From positions 1-35,585 of the forward strand of contig JACQSP010000090.1 of NCBI GenBank assembly GCA_016205905.1: a stretch of DNA of 35,585 bases, in the 5' to 3' direction. Each line of letters begins with the position of its first letter. Within the stretch, counting starts at the first letter, position 1. Below are positions 1,273 to 27,956 of this stretch, piece after piece. Made by a program: the position numbers and the translations under genes. The stretch is from Candidatus Woesearchaeota archaeon (GTDB taxonomy: Archaea; Nanobdellota; Nanobdellia; Woesearchaeales; DSVV01). The notes beneath the pieces are model-generated. The model was not told the origin of the DNA and did no database searches. It saw only the letters and a list, made by a program, of their open reading frames with translations.

Positions 1273-4200
1273 TCATATCTTCTGTATCTCTCCTCTTTTT
1301 GGCTCGAATAAGTCACCATTCCTCTTCATTTTTTCAATCAGTTCCATAGTCTTATCTTCTTCAATGCCTTTTTCCTTTGCAGCATCAATTACTGTTTGCA
1401 GAGGTATATTTTTTCCAAGTGTTTCTTCAAGCTCATTAATCAGTTCTCTGACAATTACTATTCTGCTTCTTTCGGTTGTTGAAACACCAGTTGAAATTCT
1501 GTCAATATCTATCTTCCCTGTTTCAGGGTCCATACCTACCTGCTGCAGACAATATTCTAACATGGCTTTTGCTTTTTTTGCGTCTTTTCTGGTTACTTTG
1601 TCACCTAATCTTAGCTTTGCATATGCTTCTGACAGCCTGACAAGGCCTTCAAGCTGTCTTGCAGTTATGGGAATAGTTTTAATTCCTTTACCTTCAGTTG
1701 CCCCAGACGAGCGCATTTGAACATAATAATCTCTTAATTCTTCTATTGCAGCATCAGTTAGTTGCGGGCTCATTCTTTGTTTGGCGTAAACCAAATATTT
1801 TCTTAAAAGCTCAGTAGGTATATCAGGCTCTTCAGTATTTCTCATCTTATGCAGTTCAAGAATAAACTTTGCCATTTGTGTATCTTTTTCCTCGTCAGGA
1901 AGATCCTTTATTGGAAATATTAAATCAAACCTGCTGATTAATGTTGGGGGTAAATCTATTTGTCCGGCAATTGTGCCGTAAGGGTCAAACCGCCCTAATT
2001 TAGGGTTTGCTGCTGCTAATACAGTAGTTTCGCATCTTAATGTCGCCTGGATATTAGCTTTGGAAATGCTGACACTTTGTTGTTCCAATCCTTCGTGCAT
2101 AGCATCCCTGTCTTCGGGCGACATCTTATCCAGCTCGTCCACCATTAGAATACCCTTATTTGCGAGAACCATTGCGCCTGCTTCTAAGCTCCATCCTGAT
2201 AAGAATTCATCTTTGACGACGGCAGCGGTCAATCCCGCGCCGGAATTGTGGCAAATAATTCCGCCAAAACCCGCAACAAAATTTTCATTTTCGGGAACTG
2301 AAATATCGTATACATACTTATGCTTATTTTCAACTTCTTCTATTTTTTTTATTCTGACAAATCCAACATCAGAATTCATGAAGCCAACAAAATCAATTAA
2401 TTCGCTAATCAATTTATCTCCTTCTTCTGTTATTGTAACTTGTATTTGCCTACCCTCTTTTTGTTTATTGAACAGAGTGCTGTGCTCACCAATATATTCT
2501 AAAATTGATTCACCAAACCTTTTTCTTAATTCATTTCCATTCACAACTCCTTCCTGAGCAATAGAACAAAATCTATTAAGCAGCATGGTGTTGCTTAATG
2601 TGTTCGTGGTAATTCTGGTGGATTTGTTCGTCTTTACATTCTTGAAAAAATAGTTTGATAATACCTCTCCAAATTTTTTATATGGCGGCCGTTCATATCT
2701 ATTATCAAATTGTTTTCCTTCTTTCGGGCTTTTTAACTCATAAACATAACCATAATTATGGACATTTCTGCCGTTGATAACTGTTATTTTATCGCAGAAT
2801 TTTTTAGTAAGCGAAGCAATTTTTTTATTATAAAGGAAAATATATAATAAGTCTGACGCCAGTTCTTTTGATTTAGTAACTCCTGCGTCACCTTTGATAT
2901 ATGCTTCAATAAACTCTTGCTGCATTTCTGTGTTAGAATTGAATATTATTTGCGGTATTCTTTTTTCTTTTGCATGCTTATGTGCAACATCACCTAATAA
3001 TTTAACAAAAGTAGTATATGATTCTTTTCCATGAATAACCAGTCTTAAACCATTTTCTCCATGTTTGTTAATGCTAATTTCTTTGTTAAATTTATTCTTT
3101 ACAATATTCTGTAAATCTTTTACAATAGCAGTGTCTTTCTTCCCTAACGTGAATTCAACTTTATAATATTCTTTCTCTTTTGCATGGAGATGCCCTTCTG
3201 CAATAAAATATCCTAATAATCGTGCATACTCTTTATCAATCATGCTTATATTTTTTTGAGCTTTCAAATCATTTGCTCCACTATCAATATTAATATCTAT
3301 TTTTGGTTCTTTTTCATCTTCAATAATAATCTTTTTAGGGATTAATACATAATCATTAGTTCCTAACTCTTGTGAGGTTTTGACCATAATTTTACCATTT
3401 TCAATCGTGTAAATGCTGTGGTCTTTTGTTACAGTTACTTCTCTTCCACTTTCAAGATAAAATTTGAGCAGCTTATCATCAGTAGTATGCCTAAAGACAC
3501 AACTTATCGGTTTCCATTCTAATTTCTTGGTGTCATTATTTAAAGAAAGCGCGAGAATATTCTTTTTTAACGGAACAAAAACATTTTCTTTATTTTCGCT
3601 ATGAGCATCAACAAATTCACCAATCTTTATAATTTGAAGATTATTATTATCTTTGATTAATAAAGATTCATTATATTCTAAACTCACGCCCTTCCCTGAC
3701 ACGTACCTTGCCTTAGGTGCGACGACAGAAGCGCGCTTTAAAATTTGGGATTTCCCGCAACCCGGATCCCCTATCAATAAAATATGTATATCTCCTCTCG
3801 TTTTCACTCCATCTTCTCTATGTTTTGTTACACCACCGACAAACTGCATGCATAATGCTTCCTTAACCCTATCATGCCCAAAAATTCCAGGAGCTAAAGA
3901 ACTTGTTAATTTTTCATAAATTAATGGGTCGCTTGCAAGAACTTTTATTCTTTCTTCATCTTCTGCTGAAATTTCTATATTAGAATAATCCTCCTCGACA
4001 CCTTCTACGCAGTTGGCCTCTATAAGCAAATCAAACTTTGTGCTTTGCCCGCCGGTTTTTAAAATTATGGGTACTTCTTTGATTATGCCAACAACCCTTA
4101 TATTATTACCAGGGTTTGTTCTTTTTTCTGACATTGGGCTTACTAAATCATTTTTTAGGAAGATATTAATTCTTTTTGGCTGCTCACCGCCTTCCATGTC

Positions 4201-4743
4201 TTTGGTAGATTCTTCTAAAACAATACCTTGTGCGTCAACAAGCTCTTTGCTTATCATCTTAAACTTGCCTTTTCTGCCGCAGTTGCATCTGCTTGGCTCC
4301 TTAAACTTTTTCTCGAGCTGAAGAACGGGAATAATATTGCCGCAACTGGGGCATTCAAACCTTGCAGAAGTTACCTGCGGCCTTACATCAGACTTTTGCC
4401 TTACAACACCTTCTGTCCAGATAAATTTGCCCAAATGATTGCTTCTGATATTTCTTATAAGAATATATTGTTCTTTTGGCAGATTTTTTACCCTGACTGT
4501 TATTTGTTTTATATCGTTTGCATTCTCGCCCAAATCAAAATTTTTTATGGCAAGCTCAAATGCTTTAATAGTTTCTTCTGGCTTGTCAAGCAATTCTTCA
4601 GAAACATCTAAATTAAACTTGCACAACTCCTGAAAATCTATAATGAGAACATGTTTGCCCTGCCTTACATTTTCAAATAGCTCTGTTTGGCAGTTTTTCT
4701 CTACAAAATCCTGAAATTTAGTGATTACTTCGTTTACTTCCAT
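1273..4743 (-). CDS. mcm: MCM replicative helicase, intein-containing precursor (1156 aa; 676 aa after splicing)
   Basis: Zn finger CPSCG...CNCG, Walker A GDPGCGKS (aa 325-332), Walker B ILMVDELDKM, AAANP, arginine-finger SRFDLIF and a C-terminal winged helix. The conserved SGKG-V/S-GAGLTAAVV motif is split by 480 aa. Confidence 0.97.
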   Translation of the reverse strand: MEVNEVITKFQDFVEKNCQTELFENVRQGKHVLIIDFQELCKFNLDVSEELLDKPEETIKAFELAIKNFDLGENANDIKQITVRVKNLPKEQYILIRNIRSNHLGKFIWTEGVVRQKSDVRPQVTSARFECPSCGNIIPVLQLEKKFKEPSRCNCGRKGKFKMISKELVDAQGIVLEESTKDMEGGEQPKRINIFLKNDLVSPMSEKRTNPGNNIRVVGIIKEVPIILKTGGQSTKFDLLIEANCVEGVEEDYSNIEISAEDEERIKVLASDPLIYEKLTSSLAPGIFGHDRVKEALCMQFVGGVTKHREDGVKTRGDIHILLIGDPGCGKSQILKRASVVAPKARYVSGKGVSLEYNESLLIKDNNNLQIIKIGEFVDAHSENKENVFVPLKKNILALSLNNDTKKLEWKPISCVFRHTTDDKLLKFYLESGREVTVTKDHSIYTIENGKIMVKTSQELGTNDYVLIPKKIIIEDEKEPKIDINIDSGANDLKAQKNISMIDKEYARLLGYFIAEGHLHAKEKEYYKVEFTLGKKDTAIVKDLQNIVKNKFNKEISINKHGENGLRLVIHGKESYTTFVKLLGDVAHKHAKEKRIPQIIFNSNTEMQQEFIEAYIKGDAGVTKSKELASDLLYIFLYNKKIASLTKKFCDKITVINGRNVHNYGYVYELKSPKEGKQFDNRYERPPYKKFGEVLSNYFFKNVKTNKSTRITTNTLSNTMLLNRFCSIAQEGVVNGNELRKRFGESILEYIGEHSTLFNKQKEGRQIQVTITEEGDKLISELIDFVGFMNSDVGFVRIKKIEEVENKHKYVYDISVPENENFVAGFGGIICHNSGAGLTAAVVKDEFLSGWSLEAGAMVLANKGILMVDELDKMSPEDRDAMHEGLEQQSVSISKANIQATLRCETTVLAAANPKLGRFDPYGTIAGQIDLPPTLISRFDLIFPIKDLPDEEKDTQMAKFILELHKMRNTEEPDIPTELLRKYLVYAKQRMSPQLTDAAIEELRDYYVQMRSSGATEGKGIKTIPITARQLEGLVRLSEAYAKLRLGDKVTRKDAKKAKAMLEYCLQQVGMDPETGKIDIDRISTGVSTTERSRIVIVRELINELEETLGKNIPLQTVIDAAKEKGIEEDKTMELIEKMKRNGDLFEPKRGEIQKI
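2245..3684 (-). mobile_element. Intein (480 aa, MCM aa 354-833) with LAGLIDADG homing-endonuclease domain
   Basis: Begins with Ser (GKGV|SLEYNESLLI) and ends IICHN|S with +1 Ser. Block B TKDH. Two LAGLIDADG motifs, LLGYFIAEGHL and FIEAYIKGDAGV. Removing it restores YVSGKGV-SGAGLTAAVVKDE. Confidence 0.9.
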
Positions 4744-4812: not shown

Positions 4813-5017
4813 GTATTTGTTTAGCTGATTTCTTTTTTATATCTTTTTTATCGCTCTCAACACGTTTGTGGGCGCAGCCACCCGTCTCATGAATTATTAG
4901 TTATTCGTTCTTCGTCATTCGTAACTAAGAACGAAAAACGAATAACAGTTCTATCATGAACGAATACCTGTTTTATCCTAATGAATCGGTGGCTTCGCCT
5001 TATCACTAAACAAATAA
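4813..5017. mobile_element. Family-1 MITE (205 bp) with 8-bp target-site duplication
   Basis: Terminal inverted repeats GTATTTGTTTAG (4813-4824) and CTAAACAAATAA (5006-5017), 11/12 complementary. Flanked by perfect direct repeats AATAATTA (4805-4812 and 5018-5025). Inner inverted pair GGCGCAGCCACC/GGTGGCTTCGCC. Central hairpin 4900-4915/4931-4946 (15/16). Confidence 0.8.
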
Positions 5018-5755: not shown

Positions 5756-5848
5756 AAAGGTAGGAAAGTAAGAGGTTTGAGGTAAGAGGGAACAACTACG
5801 AGATTATCATCGTACCTCTTACCTCTAACCTCTTACATCTAACTCTTT
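5756..5848. repeat. Family-2 palindromic element
   Basis: Left arm AAAGGTAGGAAAGTAAGAGGTTTGAGGTAAGAGGG, core AACAACTACGAGATTATCATCGT, right arm ACCTCTTACCTCTAACCTCTTACATCT. Lies in the divergent tbp/thiI-like spacer. Confidence 0.75.
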
Positions 5849-9500: not shown

Positions 9501-9632
9501 GTATTTGTTTAGCATCTTCAAAATTCCGTATGAAGTTTCGCAGAGGTGACATCCCTGTATGGGGCAAGTCCCCCTGTCACCTTTGCAATTAGGCTCAAAA
9601 TAAATTTTGGCCTTATGATGCTAAACAAATAC
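9501..9632. mobile_element. MITE (132 bp) with family-1 termini, perfect 16-bp TIRs and an 8-bp TSD
   Basis: GTATTTGTTTAGCATC (9501-9516) is the exact reverse complement of GATGCTAAACAAATAC (9617-9632). Flanked by GAAAGAAT at 9493-9500 and 9633-9640. Internal GC-rich hairpin GCAGAGGTGACA/TGTCACCTTTGC. Confidence 0.85.
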
Positions 9633-15974: not shown

Positions 15975-16154
15975 ATATTTTTTTAGTTCCTGGGCGAAGC
16001 CACCCGTCTCATGAATAATAATAACTGTTTGTCGTAAGTCGTTTGTCGTTGGTCGTAAACAAAAAACGAAAAAAACAGCTGACGACTTACGACCTACGAC
16101 TAACGACTTACTCGCTCTTTGCTTCGCCTTTGAACTAAAAGAACTAAAAAATAC
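15975..16154. repeat. Family-1 variant palindromic element with GTCGTNN heptad arms
   Basis: Ends ATATTTTTTTAGTTC and GAACTAAAAAATAC are inverted. Contains GGGCGAAGCCACCCGTCTCATGAA. Left arm GTCGTAA GTCGTTT GTCGTTG GTCGTAA (16031-16058) pairs with CGACTTA CGACCTA CGACTAA CGACTTA (16083-16110), about 22/24. No TSD seen. Confidence 0.7.
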
Positions 16155-16184
16155 AATTAAACCATAAAAAATCAAAAATGCACC

Positions 16185-18482
16185 ATGAACAAAACATCCC
16201 AACTCGCAATCTTTATGATTCTTGGAATTGTGTCTGTTATTCTCATAGGTTTGGCATTATTCGGCATTTCTAGCTCGACAGAAAAAGGTTTTGTAACAAA
16301 ACAGTCCCAATTAGGAGAGCTGTTTATCGGCAAAGGTAAATATACTACTTACATTAAAAGCTGTCTTGACCAGGCAACAAAACAAGGTTTAGTATTAGCA
16401 GGTAAACAAGGCGGCGCAATTTATGATAATCAGACCATTGGCGGTAAACAGTCGCAGACAAGCAAATATTATGAATTAGATGGTATAAGAATACATTATT
16501 CATTGCTTTCTCCAACAATAATTAAATTGCCAGAATATCCTTATATTCCAAGTACAATAACATTAACATCTTCCCCTTTTCTAGCTCAAGAACCTTCTAT
16601 TTATGGTGTACCAACACCATTTATTAGTGTCATTAATAATCCGTTCATACCTTTATGCGACAGGTTTGGCCCAAACAATGACCCTAAATCTAATGTGCCT
16701 TACTGCGGCAATGCACCGTACATTTTTGACACTGAAAACATTAACGATCATAACTCTGTCCAAGAATATTTAGGTAAATACATCACGCAAAAAACAAACG
16801 AATGCATAAAACTCGAAACACTGCCAGAGCTTCAAGGATATAACATTATTAAACAAAATTTCAATGTAGACATTATTTTGACAGAATCATCTGTTGTTGC
16901 TAATCTTAACATGACGTTGGCATTATCAACACCGCAGTCAACATTAAAAGAAACCCTGCCGGTGATAGATATCAGCGGTATTTCAGTAGAGAAACATATC
17001 AGGCTAAAACACATATTTGAATTATTGGCAAGAATGAGGCAGGAAGATTCAAAGAATATATTTTTCGAGATAACTAATGCGCAGACATTAAAAACTTGCG
17101 GTCCAAACGAAAATTTGCAGTGCTTAAAGCCAGGAATGATTGTCTCAACCCAGAAATTACCAAATAATGATTATGTTGTCAAGATTACTGACACAGAATC
17201 ATTGATTGACGGAAAGGAGTTTAGTTATCAGGTAATCTTTCAGAATAGAAACCCAACTTTAGATTATTTAACTGCACCAAACTTAAATCCAGAATTTTCT
17301 GATTACAATGCTGTTCTTGTCGAGGGAATGACTCTTGTAATAGATCCTTATGGATATGATCCTGACGAGGATAATCATGAGCAGGGGTTTATGAAAGATT
17401 ATTATTATTACGAGGCAGTTGATGGTTATACTAAATTTGATGCAGACAAGGATAATGACGGAGTGATTGATTGTATTCCGACGACAAACAGCGGTTTAGA
17501 CGGAATAAAAGATTCATTAAAAAGCTGCCTTGTGCAAGACAAGCTGCCGTCAGCATTCAAGGGAAGAAAAGTAACTTATAAACTAACACAACATGATGCC
17601 GGCGAACATATTATCCGAGTAAAAGTCTGCGATAATACAAACAATCCCAAATGTGACTGGCAGGACGTAAAGATTTTTGTTATTCCATTGTTGGCTTTCG
17701 GTACAGATCAGAACGGAAATCCTTTTCCTTTTGATTCAACCAAAGATTACCAAATCTCGGGTTATCCAATTTATTCAACTAATCCAAGTGATACTGTAAC
17801 TTTAGGTGTAAAACAAACAATTACTTCAGAATCATTATTAACACCACAACCACAAGAACCAACTTTGCCTGACACAGAAAACACAGAATCACAACAAGGA
17901 TCAGAAACACAATCAGGAGATGATACTCAAGATTCATCACAATCTTCTCAACCTTCTTCACAACAAGGATATTCTTCGCCAACACAACCTTCAACACATT
18001 CATCCTCGCAACAAACCACACCAATAGTCACGCCAACTATACCTTACGATAACACCGACGTTGATATTCTTATTTCTAGAGCATTAAGCGGCACAAAACT
18101 GCCTTACGAAATGTATTACTTTGAAAACAAATATCTTATAGTGAAAAACACTATTAATAACCAAGGTCCAGAAGTTGTGCCAGAAACAGACGCATTTAGA
18201 CAGTTCGCTGAAAAAGGCGATAATGGAAAACCTAACTTATACATACAAAAAAAGATTTATGGTACCAACCAGCAAAGCGCACTTAACCAAAAGTTAGCTA
18301 CAGGAAAAAACCTGTTTTTTATTTACATCCCTGAGCCATGCACACAAGGAGCGTTCTTCCAAGGATACTGTCATTTTGGTGACAAATGTTATTATAATAT
18401 GAACATAGTTAATCATAATTTTCAAACAGCGTGGGACAATTGTCCTTCTGCAAAACTCTGTACAGAAACAGGGTGTAAATAA
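16185..18482 (+). CDS. Large exported protein 2 (765 aa) with pilin-type N-terminus, Ig-like/Ca-binding-like motifs and an S/T/Q/P linker
   Basis: MNKTSQLAIFMILGIVSVILIGLALFG. DPYGYDPDEDN and DKDNDGVID (DxDxDG-like). Low-complexity TPQPQEPTLPDTENTESQQGSETQSGDDTQDSSQSSQPSSQQGYSSPTQPSTHSSSQQTTP. Cys-rich C-terminus. Confidence 0.75.
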   Translation: MNKTSQLAIFMILGIVSVILIGLALFGISSSTEKGFVTKQSQLGELFIGKGKYTTYIKSCLDQATKQGLVLAGKQGGAIYDNQTIGGKQSQTSKYYELDGIRIHYSLLSPTIIKLPEYPYIPSTITLTSSPFLAQEPSIYGVPTPFISVINNPFIPLCDRFGPNNDPKSNVPYCGNAPYIFDTENINDHNSVQEYLGKYITQKTNECIKLETLPELQGYNIIKQNFNVDIILTESSVVANLNMTLALSTPQSTLKETLPVIDISGISVEKHIRLKHIFELLARMRQEDSKNIFFEITNAQTLKTCGPNENLQCLKPGMIVSTQKLPNNDYVVKITDTESLIDGKEFSYQVIFQNRNPTLDYLTAPNLNPEFSDYNAVLVEGMTLVIDPYGYDPDEDNHEQGFMKDYYYYEAVDGYTKFDADKDNDGVIDCIPTTNSGLDGIKDSLKSCLVQDKLPSAFKGRKVTYKLTQHDAGEHIIRVKVCDNTNNPKCDWQDVKIFVIPLLAFGTDQNGNPFPFDSTKDYQISGYPIYSTNPSDTVTLGVKQTITSESLLTPQPQEPTLPDTENTESQQGSETQSGDDTQDSSQSSQPSSQQGYSSPTQPSTHSSSQQTTPIVTPTIPYDNTDVDILISRALSGTKLPYEMYYFENKYLIVKNTINNQGPEVVPETDAFRQFAEKGDNGKPNLYIQKKIYGTNQQSALNQKLATGKNLFFIYIPEPCTQGAFFQGYCHFGDKCYYNMNIVNHNFQTAWDNCPSAKLCTETGCK

Positions 18483-18611
18483 AGTGTTAATATTAATGTG
18501 ATAGTGCAGGTAATTTCAATTGTACACATTTTGTGTACAACTCAACACCCTGTTCAGTTTCTCTTGCTTTTAACATATTTCAATAGTTTCTAGGATTAGT
18601 ACTATCAGTTA

Positions 18612-18811
18612 ATGTTCTGTTTTTTAATCTTATTTTCCGTTTTCAACTCGTTCTAGGGACGAAGTCCACGTCCACAAATAAAGGTAAGAAGTAAGAGGTT
18701 TGAGGTAAGAGGTACGATGATAACCTCGTAGTTGTTCCCTCTTACCTCCTACTTCTTACCTTTTACCTTTTTTTCATAAGACGTGTGGCTTCGCCTAGGA
18801 ACTAAAAAAAT
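18612..18811. repeat. Composite repeat: family-1 shell enclosing an inverted family-2 core; outer ends approximate
   Basis: Shell blocks CTAGGGACGAAGTCCACGTC (left) and GACGTGTGGCTTCGCCTAGGAACTAAAAA (right) are inverted. The interior 18679-18774 is a full family-2 element whose core (18704-18739) is the reverse complement of the other three. Confidence 0.7.
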
Positions 18812-18897
18812 AAAAAAAGCAATTACTTATTCCCTCGTAACCAGATAAAAACAACATATTTAAATAGTATTAATTAATAGATTAATAGTTATATACT

Positions 18898-25955: not shown

Positions 25956-26486
25956 ATGAAACTATTTACTAATTTATTAACATCAAAAACAAGCCACATT
26001 AACTCAAAGAAGTCGCAGGTTGAACAAATGTTTTTTTACATTTTGGCCTTGTTTGTTATAGGCACAATGCTGTTATTAGGCATTAAATATATCGGCAAGA
26101 TTGTCAAGCAGGTTGAATCAGTTGACCTTGTTGAGTTCAAAACAAGTTTACAAAATGATGTGGATGTTTTAGTCACAAAATATGGCAGCTGGAAAAAAGC
26201 AACATATACTGTGCCTAAAGAAGTCAAGAAGGTATGTTTTTTTACAATAGATGCTTATAAAAATGGTTGTCCTTCGCTTCCAGACCTTGACGCTGTAATG
26301 TGCGATGCATGGCAGTCTGGCACACAAAACGTAATGACTGTTCCGTTTGTTTTGGAATCACCAATTAATCTCACTAAAATGGTTGTTGATGAAACTAATG
26401 GCTACAAATGTTTCGAGGTTACAGACAGGAAAATCACTTTAAAAATTACAGGTATAGGTAATGGCGTGAAGATTTCAGAGGCGTGA
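25956..26486 (+). CDS. Class III signal (prepilin-like) protein, 176 aa
   Basis: ...INSKKS|QVEQMFFYILALFVIGTMLLLGI shows a basic stretch, a small residue, polar/acidic +1..+3, then about 20 hydrophobic residues. SD AGGTGA lies 6 nt upstream. Confidence 0.6.
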   Translation: MKLFTNLLTSKTSHINSKKSQVEQMFFYILALFVIGTMLLLGIKYIGKIVKQVESVDLVEFKTSLQNDVDVLVTKYGSWKKATYTVPKEVKKVCFFTIDAYKNGCPSLPDLDAVMCDAWQSGTQNVMTVPFVLESPINLTKMVVDETNGYKCFEVTDRKITLKITGIGNGVKISEA

Positions 26487-26488
26487 TT

Positions 26489-26609
26489 AAAAAGGTAAGA
26501 AAGTAAAGATTAAACAGTTAAAAGTAAGAGTAGGGGGTAAGGGGGAACAACTACGATGTTATCATCGTACCTCTTACCTTATACCTCTTACTTTTTACTT
26601 CTTACCTTT
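26489..26609. repeat. Family-2 palindromic element
   Basis: Core GGGAACAACTACGATGTTATCATCGTACCTCTTACC (26543-26578). Starts 3 nt after the stop of 25956..26486. The left arm carries a short insertion (GATTAAACAGTTAA). Confidence 0.75.
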
Positions 26610-27751: not shown

Positions 27752-27956
27752 ATATTTGTTTAGCATTAATGTTTTTTTACTTTACACAATTTTACTACAT
27801 ACATTATATTATTGCTCACAGCACGTTTGTGGGACGCAGTCCCCGTCTCATGAAAAATCTTAAATTTTTTTTAAATGGCTGTATAAAAAACCCCCTATTA
27901 CCAACTAATAAAGCAAATAAAAACTTAAAAGCATCAAATAATAACTAAACAAATAC
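27752..27956. mobile_element. Family-1 MITE (205 bp) with 8-bp TSD (7/8)
   Basis: Ends ATATTTGTTTAG (27752-27763) and CTAAACAAATAC (27945-27956). Flanks TATTGATT (27744-27751, containing the upstream gene's TGA stop) and TATTAATT (27957-27964). Left block ATTGCTCACAGCACGTTTGTGGGACGCAGTCCCCGTCTCATGAA is present; the right GGCTTCGCC block is missing. Confidence 0.75.

Follow-up and report, generated by a model that had tools for sequence, protein, structure and literature searches.

The window, the whole 35,585-nucleotide stretch of DNA analysed here, is contig C67 of a Woesearchaeota-type metagenome-assembled genome (G000; 1.38 Mb in 154 contigs, 33.6% G+C), which is 76.6% complete, with about 23% unassembled. 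It carries four copies of a palindromic repeat of about 95 bases, with units of 93–121 nt, which we refer to as the rod. The copy under study (copy 2) lies on the forward strand at 5756–5848, between the divergently transcribed tbp and thiI-like genes. Copy 1 (1177–1272, +) fills the spacer between the mcm and RPA32-like genes, with its right end directly against the stop codon of mcm, while copy 3 (26489–26609, +) begins 2 nt past the stop codon of the open reading frame at 25956–26486. Copy 4 (18679–18774, −) occupies the centre of a decayed copy of a larger, GTATTTGTTTAG-type MITE, whose outer shell is recognizable on the left at approximately 18590–18678 (+) by CCGNTNNCAAC-type short repeats and a GGGACGAAGTCCAC hairpin, and on the right at approximately 18775–18830 (+) by a GTGGCTTCGCC hairpin and GGAACTAAA. 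The mcm gene itself (1273–4743, −) contains, according to Pfam hits, an intein with a LAGLIDADG domain inside its P-loop domain. Together with tbp and further genes, this mcm identifies the organism as an archaeon. When the window was searched with a 35-nt core pattern, allowing up to 3 mismatches, exactly four sites were returned (1212–1246, 5789–5823 and 26544–26578 on the forward strand and 18704–18738 on the reverse strand), and 100 shuffled windows gave no match. The four copies listed in the preliminary description are thus genuine, with 4 core sites against 0 expected by chance.

As a single strand the repeat folds into a long imperfect rod composed of two arms of ~34 bp, a 7-nt bulge, GAACAAC, on one side only and a 7-bp mini-hairpin closed by a TTAT loop. 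In the flagged copy, sequence, folding and alignment define a purine-rich, SD-like left arm of 34 nt (5756–5789, +), and folding together with related centres places the bulge at 5790–5796 (+), which we read as an unmatched ACGAC-type unit. The mini-hairpin, TACGAGA-TTAT-CATCGTA, follows at 5797–5814 (+) and the pyrimidine-rich, anti-SD-like right arm at 5815–5848 (+), both assigned from sequence and fold. Compared with the family consensus, TACGATG-TTAT-CATCGTA, this mini-hairpin has two substitutions that weaken it. Two substitutions are also found in the core of copy 1 (AAGGAAC...CTGCG), whose left arm runs outward to about position 1140 through GGTTTGATGG-type units. Bulge variants among the copies are AACAAC, AATGAC and AACGAC. 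Folded as DNA, the copies have energies of −17 to −28 kcal/mol and z-scores of −5.1 to −8.0. For the flagged copy, folding is as good on one strand as on the other (−23.8 versus −23.0 kcal/mol). The folding therefore bears out the earlier observation that an unpaired segment beside the mini-hairpin makes the element asymmetric.

To place the four copies in the context of their genome, we took a census of the assembly with a 27-nt core (up to 3 mismatches) and with an HMM of the 93-nt unit. The core search yielded 47 canonical copies, all of them intergenic and in both orientations. The HMM marked 72 places, which comprise these 47, a further 9 canonical copies truncated where a contig ends and about 16 rods that share the arm units and have a deleted or different centre, the last group being recovered also by an arm-based search. 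The genome therefore contains at least 56 rods. A contig end lies within 150 nt of at least 14 of the 47 canonical copies, as is typical of repeats that break assemblies, and so the true copy number must be higher. Across 37 full copies, column identity is highest in the mini-hairpin (97%) and the proximal 9-bp stems (96–98%), lower in the bulge (88%) and falls through the mid arms (82–83%) to the distal arms (55–63%). The left proximal stem, which lies outside the search pattern, diverges by 4–7% within each of three subfamilies, compared with 20–28% for the left distal arm, where indels of unit length account for part of the value. The arms consist of degenerate 7–8-nt units of GGTAAGAG type around a 25-nt centre and are strongly biased in composition, with 2.6% C in the left arm and 4% G in the right. 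In the hairpin register, 86.7% of cells pair, compared with 39–50% in slid controls (24 copies, 40 pairs). Thus, the census confirmed that the core is conserved in other copies of the genome. The earlier statement that a strictly conserved core is accompanied by drifting arms holds genome-wide as a gradient in the 37 copies; it fails in that the core is not universal, given the roughly 16 rods with other or deleted centres.

About half of the rod copies occupy the exact middle of a member of a larger MITE family, the one that hosts copy 4. This host MITE has GTATTTGTTTAG inverted ends, of which the genome contains about 88, and a shell of small G+C-rich hairpins with about 100 matches each. 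Its 8-bp target duplications can be read directly in the window, as AATAATTA at 4813–5017 and GAAAGAAT at 9501–9632; further window copies with such ends and 8-bp duplications lie at 27752–27956, about 177–400 and about 15975–16200, and the central rods differ among them. A census of the shells showed that their centres are exchangeable, with at least four types of rod, distinguished by their units (GGTAAGAG, GCTTGAAAG, GTCGTAA and TTCGTTAT), as well as AT-rich fillers. In the window an F-type rod (TTCGTTAT units) is found at 4863, a D-type rod (GCTTGAAAG units) near 207 and an E-type rod (GTCGTAA units) near 16015. The rod studied here occurs in both orientations relative to the shell, each orientation being tied to a subfamily, AATGAC or AACAAC. 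Other copies form the centre of outer rods built of GGTTTGATGG or GGCTTGTAA units, again in both orientations, and a few stand alone in unique spacers.

The structure of the centres offers an explanation for the asymmetry. The variant-centre rods contain symmetric or near-symmetric ACGAC/GTCGT motifs; in one of them, on contig C53, TACGAC...GTCGTA encloses the same TGCGATGTTA segment. The canonical centre has two units on the left (GAACGAC or GAACAAC, followed by TACGATG) and one on the right (CATCGTA). The asymmetric core is therefore best read as containing one unmatched ACGAC-type tandem unit, a difference of the kind that slippage would produce in arms built of 7–8-nt units. On this interpretation the one-sided bulge would be an unpaired extra unit rather than a sign of a dedicated binding site, and the earlier suggestion that the asymmetry argues for specific binding would lose its basis.

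The rods are themselves targets for other small elements. A double-hairpin element of ~94 nt (GTGGACTTTAA...TTAAAGTCCAC, TATATGCACGGA...TCCGTGCATATA) is present in the right arm of three rods outside the window (C109:34–127, C62 and C82), at TTATA^CTTC and with TATA on both sides, and a relative of it is found in the sister species (L070, about 1310–1400) within the MITE orthologous to that of copy 4. At C43:1102–1215 an element of ~115 nt with two hairpins (CTGTGACC..GGTCACAG and AATGCCGACAAT..ATTGTCGGCATT) lies within a rod arm, with TTACTT on both sides, and its hairpin recurs at about 8 places in the genome. Two further palindromes are also abundant, TATAGTAAGTGAC-loop-GTCACTTACTATA at about 25 places and AATGGAATTAGTTT-GTTCGA-AAACTAATTCCATT at about 20, often at contig ends.

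We compared the rod-bearing sites with those of the sister species (G001), the one other species of the genus, and of a member of another genus of the same family (G002). In at least 7 orthologous spacers of one or the other, no rod is present; these comprise the three window loci of copies 1–3 and four sites elsewhere. At the flagged copy, G002 has the same divergent arrangement of tbp and thiI-like genes, and its sequence is conserved with the window up to ...AAATACTGTGTTTTT and resumes at TTAATAAAG..., with the right junction just before TTAATAAAC; what the window has in addition is the 93-nt rod. The spacer of copy 1 measures 141 nt in the window compared with an unrelated 61 nt in G001 and 0 nt in G002, and that of copy 3 measures 163 nt compared with 64 nt and 17 nt, respectively. 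Elsewhere, the whole composite at C22:11114 is missing from the sister species (27 versus 347 nt), and the element or composite is missing at C88:9906 (45 versus 269 nt) and at C88:3676 (84 versus 150 nt). At C134:6691, where the sister species has about 55–60 nt compared with 170 nt, the flanks are conserved right up to both junctions. Clear target duplications were seen at none of the compared junctions; elsewhere in the AT-rich spacers the two species cannot be aligned, the intergenic DNA of G001 being too diverged for clean junctions.

At two sites the sister species retains the same outer palindrome and has a different centre. The host MITE of copy 4 has a clear orthologue there, with the same outer flanks on both sides, in which the centre is an AT-rich filler carrying a nested double-hairpin element; no remnant of this filler flanks the rod in the window. 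At C22:1584 the sister species has a decayed rod with one of its own types of centre at the site where our genome has the canonical one. More generally, G001 contains dozens of the same shells together with rods whose arms are of GGTAAGATGG/GGTTTGATGG type and whose centres, of several different kinds, contain ACGAC. Centres thus change while the surrounding palindrome stays in place, and the best explanation is that dispersed copies recombine or undergo gene conversion with one another; simple nested insertion would have left halves of the old centre on either side of the new one. Either state could be the ancestral one at these two sites.

The rod is species-specific, with no bona fide copy in 227 related genomes. 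A strict core pattern had no match in 40 relatives, the sister species included, and a looser pattern matched once among 27 family members, in a diverged G001 copy. Since that single copy is all the pattern search returned, we make no claim for conservation of the 'GAACA..TACGA' core motif across species. An arm-pair pattern was likewise absent from 200 genomes of the order, with the exception of one contig (JACPBN010000069.1, contig C60 of the genome listed as both G041 and G114; locus L033) that is 99.9% identical to contig C44 of our genome over 1.6 kb and then diverges. The public MAG that includes this contig represents another family, so misbinning or a chimeric contig is the probable explanation. 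It recurred in an exact-core scan of genome contigs, where the sole match was a contig that is essentially C44, and the corresponding scans of metagenome and viral contigs returned nothing. No rod was found at 80 metagenomic tbp loci, none of which is closer than the sister species, and a search with two flanking proteins returned no encoding contig on record. The rod thus displays insertion polymorphism at orthologous sites, as a MITE does, over at least 7 spacers and 80 tbp loci. The comparison with Rfam gave no match at gathering score in the window; the best sub-threshold match, 31.7 bits against a gathering score of 72, was to a generic miRNA-precursor hairpin and appeared on both strands. 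No known Rfam family or named repeat therefore explains the element.

We next consider which enzyme might mobilize the rod. The assembly encodes a single Y1/IS200-like gene (C4:1079–1540; PF01797, 106 bits), located in a locus (L032, C4:957–1548) that directly adjoins a shell hairpin of the large MITE. Identical hairpins, CCCAGCAC-TTTA-GTGCTGGG, lie on either side of the gene; they occur at 3 places only, including a solo copy at C53:5567, and are unrelated to the rod centre. No rod flanks the gene. Neither TnpB (PF07282) nor an IS66-type DDE transposase (PF03050) was found in the 77% complete assembly. In the same assembly no gene-bearing element is bounded by the MITE inverted ends, since the regions so bounded hold ordinary genes only, and no termini shared with an autonomous insertion sequence were detected. 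Minimum-free-energy folding used to place the ends of the elements ran into the AT-rich flanks, and HMM-anchored ends served instead for the duplication search. At these ends no consistent direct repeat was found across about 40 copies, and a fixed terminal motif for the rod itself was not established.

Taken together, these data lead us to read the rod, with moderate confidence, as a lineage-specific, non-coding palindromic repeat module of the MITE/foldback type that acts at the level of DNA. It is short, non-coding and multicopy with inverted-repeat arms (93–121 nt, at least 56 copies), as MITEs are, and its behaviour is that of selfish mobile DNA rather than of a regulatory RNA. According to this reading, the rod would have expanded recently in this one Woesearchaeota species, multiplying mainly as a passenger of its transposing host MITE. 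It may also spread by recombination or gene conversion among dispersed copies, with arms or shells providing the homology, so that the centre of an existing palindrome is replaced. The three window copies in unique DNA mean that recombination between repeats cannot explain every copy, and occasional solo insertion by a putative enzyme may have contributed. Conservation of the centre could reflect youth and copying as a block, and perhaps also a requirement of the copying process, while the arms would change faster through slippage and recombination of their tandem units. Conservation that is high at the centre and falls outward is the reverse of what is seen in classical terminal-inverted-repeat MITEs, and youth alone is insufficient to account for it.

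That gradient also bears on the possibility that the rod is a conventional MITE in its own right, which we regard as rather unlikely. The arms would then be long terminal inverted repeats for a transposase whose gene lies in the 23% of the genome that is unassembled or on an element since lost, and the copies at palindrome centres would be nested insertions that prefer such centres. Consistent with this, solo copies occupy unique spacers that relatives have without the rod, many copies start with AAAGGTAAG and finish with CTTACCTTT, and other small elements have nested in rod arms, where they are accompanied by duplications (TATA and TTACTT, for example). Moreover, TTAA or TTTAA is present at both junctions of window copies 2 and 3; TTAA is ambiguous as a target duplication, however, because it is itself palindromic and extends the hairpin. 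The reading is further weakened by the failure to find a consistent direct repeat at the ends of some 40 copies or any parent element, by the ends being the least conserved part of the rod, and by the swapped sites, where no remnant of a previous centre lies beside the rod.

It is also conceivable, if unlikely, that rods spread by a process aimed at palindrome centres, which would overwrite them with one 43-nt asymmetric cassette. Such a process might involve insertion at a hairpin apex, or breakage at the tip of a cruciform followed by repair from a dispersed copy, and the cassette might be the cis-site of a putative archaeal enzyme. If true, this would account for the onion-like nesting of palindromes as well as the outward fall in conservation, and it would represent a mode of propagation not described for archaeal MITEs.

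A REP- or REPIN-like system, in which a trans-acting enzyme, HUH/Y1-type or another domesticated one, would recognize the conserved centre as single-stranded DNA and copy the rods, seems to us quite improbable. Conservation of the rod is highest in a small, imperfect hairpin and the unpaired segment beside it, a geometry resembling that of IS200/IS605 and REP recognition sites, and the genome does have the single-copy Y1 transposase gene. That gene, however, is served by its own hairpins, with no rod beside it, and about 16 rods persist with other or deleted centres. In addition, the terminal REPs of a REPIN are conserved around a variable spacer, the opposite of what we observe in the rod, and REPINs have been stated to be undetected in archaea (10.1101/2021.07.10.451892). 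Neither a single-copy RAYT gene flanked by the repeats nor conserved ends around a variable spacer were seen here.

A structured RNA or cis-regulatory mRNA element, in which the anti-SD-like arm would mask the SD-like arm and thereby affect ribosome access, mRNA stability or termination, is very unlikely. The resemblance of the arms to SD and anti-SD sequences pointed out in the preliminary description is real, because the organism does use SD sequences. Its genes have the motif (A/G)AGGTGA(T), with AGGTG, GGTGA and GAGGT enriched 7–10 fold at a start 9–12 nt upstream of the start codon (AGGTG and GGTGA about 10-fold), and the arms match the SD core GAGGT/AAGGT. Hairpin stability is high (z-scores as low as −8), the hairpin is followed by T-runs in either orientation, and some copies lie inside apparent operons and end right beside the SD of the next gene. 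Nevertheless, as the element is palindromic, the arm that faces any downstream gene is always the pyrimidine arm and cannot supply an SD. The context of the copies is also random, which further argues against the proposed influence on ribosome access: co-directional, divergent and convergent spacers hold 20, 7 and 6 copies compared with 21.5, 5.5 and 6.0 expected (p = 0.76 for random placement by spacer number and 0.89 by spacer length), and the two orientations in co-directional spacers number 12 and 8 (p = 0.50).

Signals of selection on an RNA were equally lacking, and the suggestion that the asymmetry argues for an RNA is not supported. Mismatches in the arms show no strand bias and no excess of G·U on either strand (G·T 72 versus A·C 92, p = 0.14), and both strands fold alike. 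The covariation analysis proposed earlier gave a score of 0.093 compared with 0.090 for shuffles, 178 of 500 of which reach it (24 copies, 40 pairs). In these 24 copies the mini-hairpin has no double changes, only single and mostly disruptive ones. Compensatory covariation and strand-specific constraint were thus absent, as was an Rfam match, the generic hairpin matches reaching at most 31.7 bits and occurring on both strands, and at the same genes no relative has the element. The flagged copy lies between the TATA boxes of the divergent tbp and thiI-like genes, upstream of both promoters as we place them, and hence is probably in neither mRNA. Separately, readings of the centre as a K-turn, a bulge-helix-bulge motif or a C/D box were rejected by inspection of the sequence against their consensus features. 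Least likely of all is a structure that benefits the host and is kept by selection, for example a cruciform or protein-binding site with a role in chromosome organization or replication, for although the centre is conserved more than the arms and the density is high for a small genome, the rod is species-specific (the sister species is without it and has other centres), its placement among spacers is random, and copies are interrupted by other elements and have centres that decay by deletion.

Read as a palindromic module of the MITE/foldback type, the rod adds a new and as yet unnamed element to the small palindromic interspersed repeats (MITE, foldback or REP-like). Prokaryotic MITEs that can form a hairpin over their whole length include the Correia/NEMIS elements of Neisseria, pneumococcal RUP and BOX, enterobacterial ERIC and SM1–SM4 of Sulfolobus. 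Like these, the rod is about 100 nt long, non-coding, intergenic and palindromic, with tens of copies in both orientations, and it is confined to one lineage, varies in presence at orthologous sites, nests with other elements and breaks assemblies. It differs in that target duplications, fixed termini and a parent insertion sequence were not established for the rod itself, in that conservation peaks at the centre rather than the ends, and in that many copies form the centre of another MITE. With the REPs, REPINs and BIMEs of bacteria it shares an abundant extragenic palindrome, a conserved small stem-loop, mosaic modular combinations of the kind found in BIMEs and a single-copy Y1/HUH gene; unlike REP/REPIN systems with a RAYT, the Y1 gene has unrelated hairpins and is not flanked by the repeat, and the rod conserves its centre where REPINs conserve their ends. 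Foldback (FB-type) transposons resemble the rod, by analogy only, in their long inverted arms of short tandem sub-repeats, in variable arm length and in a central loop that differs or flips, whereas they are eukaryotic, measure kilobases and are associated with transposase genes of their own. Haloarchaea and cyanobacteria have PATEs, palindrome-associated elements that derive from IS200/IS605 and are likewise small, hairpin-bearing, non-autonomous archaeal repeats without target duplications. They carry the two distinct subterminal hairpins of the parent insertion sequence, however, while the rod is a single long palindrome and a matching IS200/IS605 element is absent here.

The rods matter mainly for annotation. 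At 23 or more contig ends it is a rod that interrupts the assembly, and in conserved operons such as that of mcm and the RPA32-like gene rods take up entire spacers. Their resemblance to structured RNAs and SD sites can also misdirect searches for non-coding RNAs, operons and promoters in DPANN genomes. An archaeon of 1.4–2 Mb that is probably symbiotic carries well over a hundred small palindromic elements, comprising at least 56 rods and roughly 100 copies of the host MITE, a load that fits the published MITE density of a Woesearchaea genome, which is among the most MITE-dense in archaea (PMC11602168). Two features are atypical compared with textbook MITEs, namely the swapping of centres at orthologous elements and the fall in conservation outward from the centre, and together, given strain-resolved long-read data, they could show how archaea maintain and homogenize palindromic DNA.
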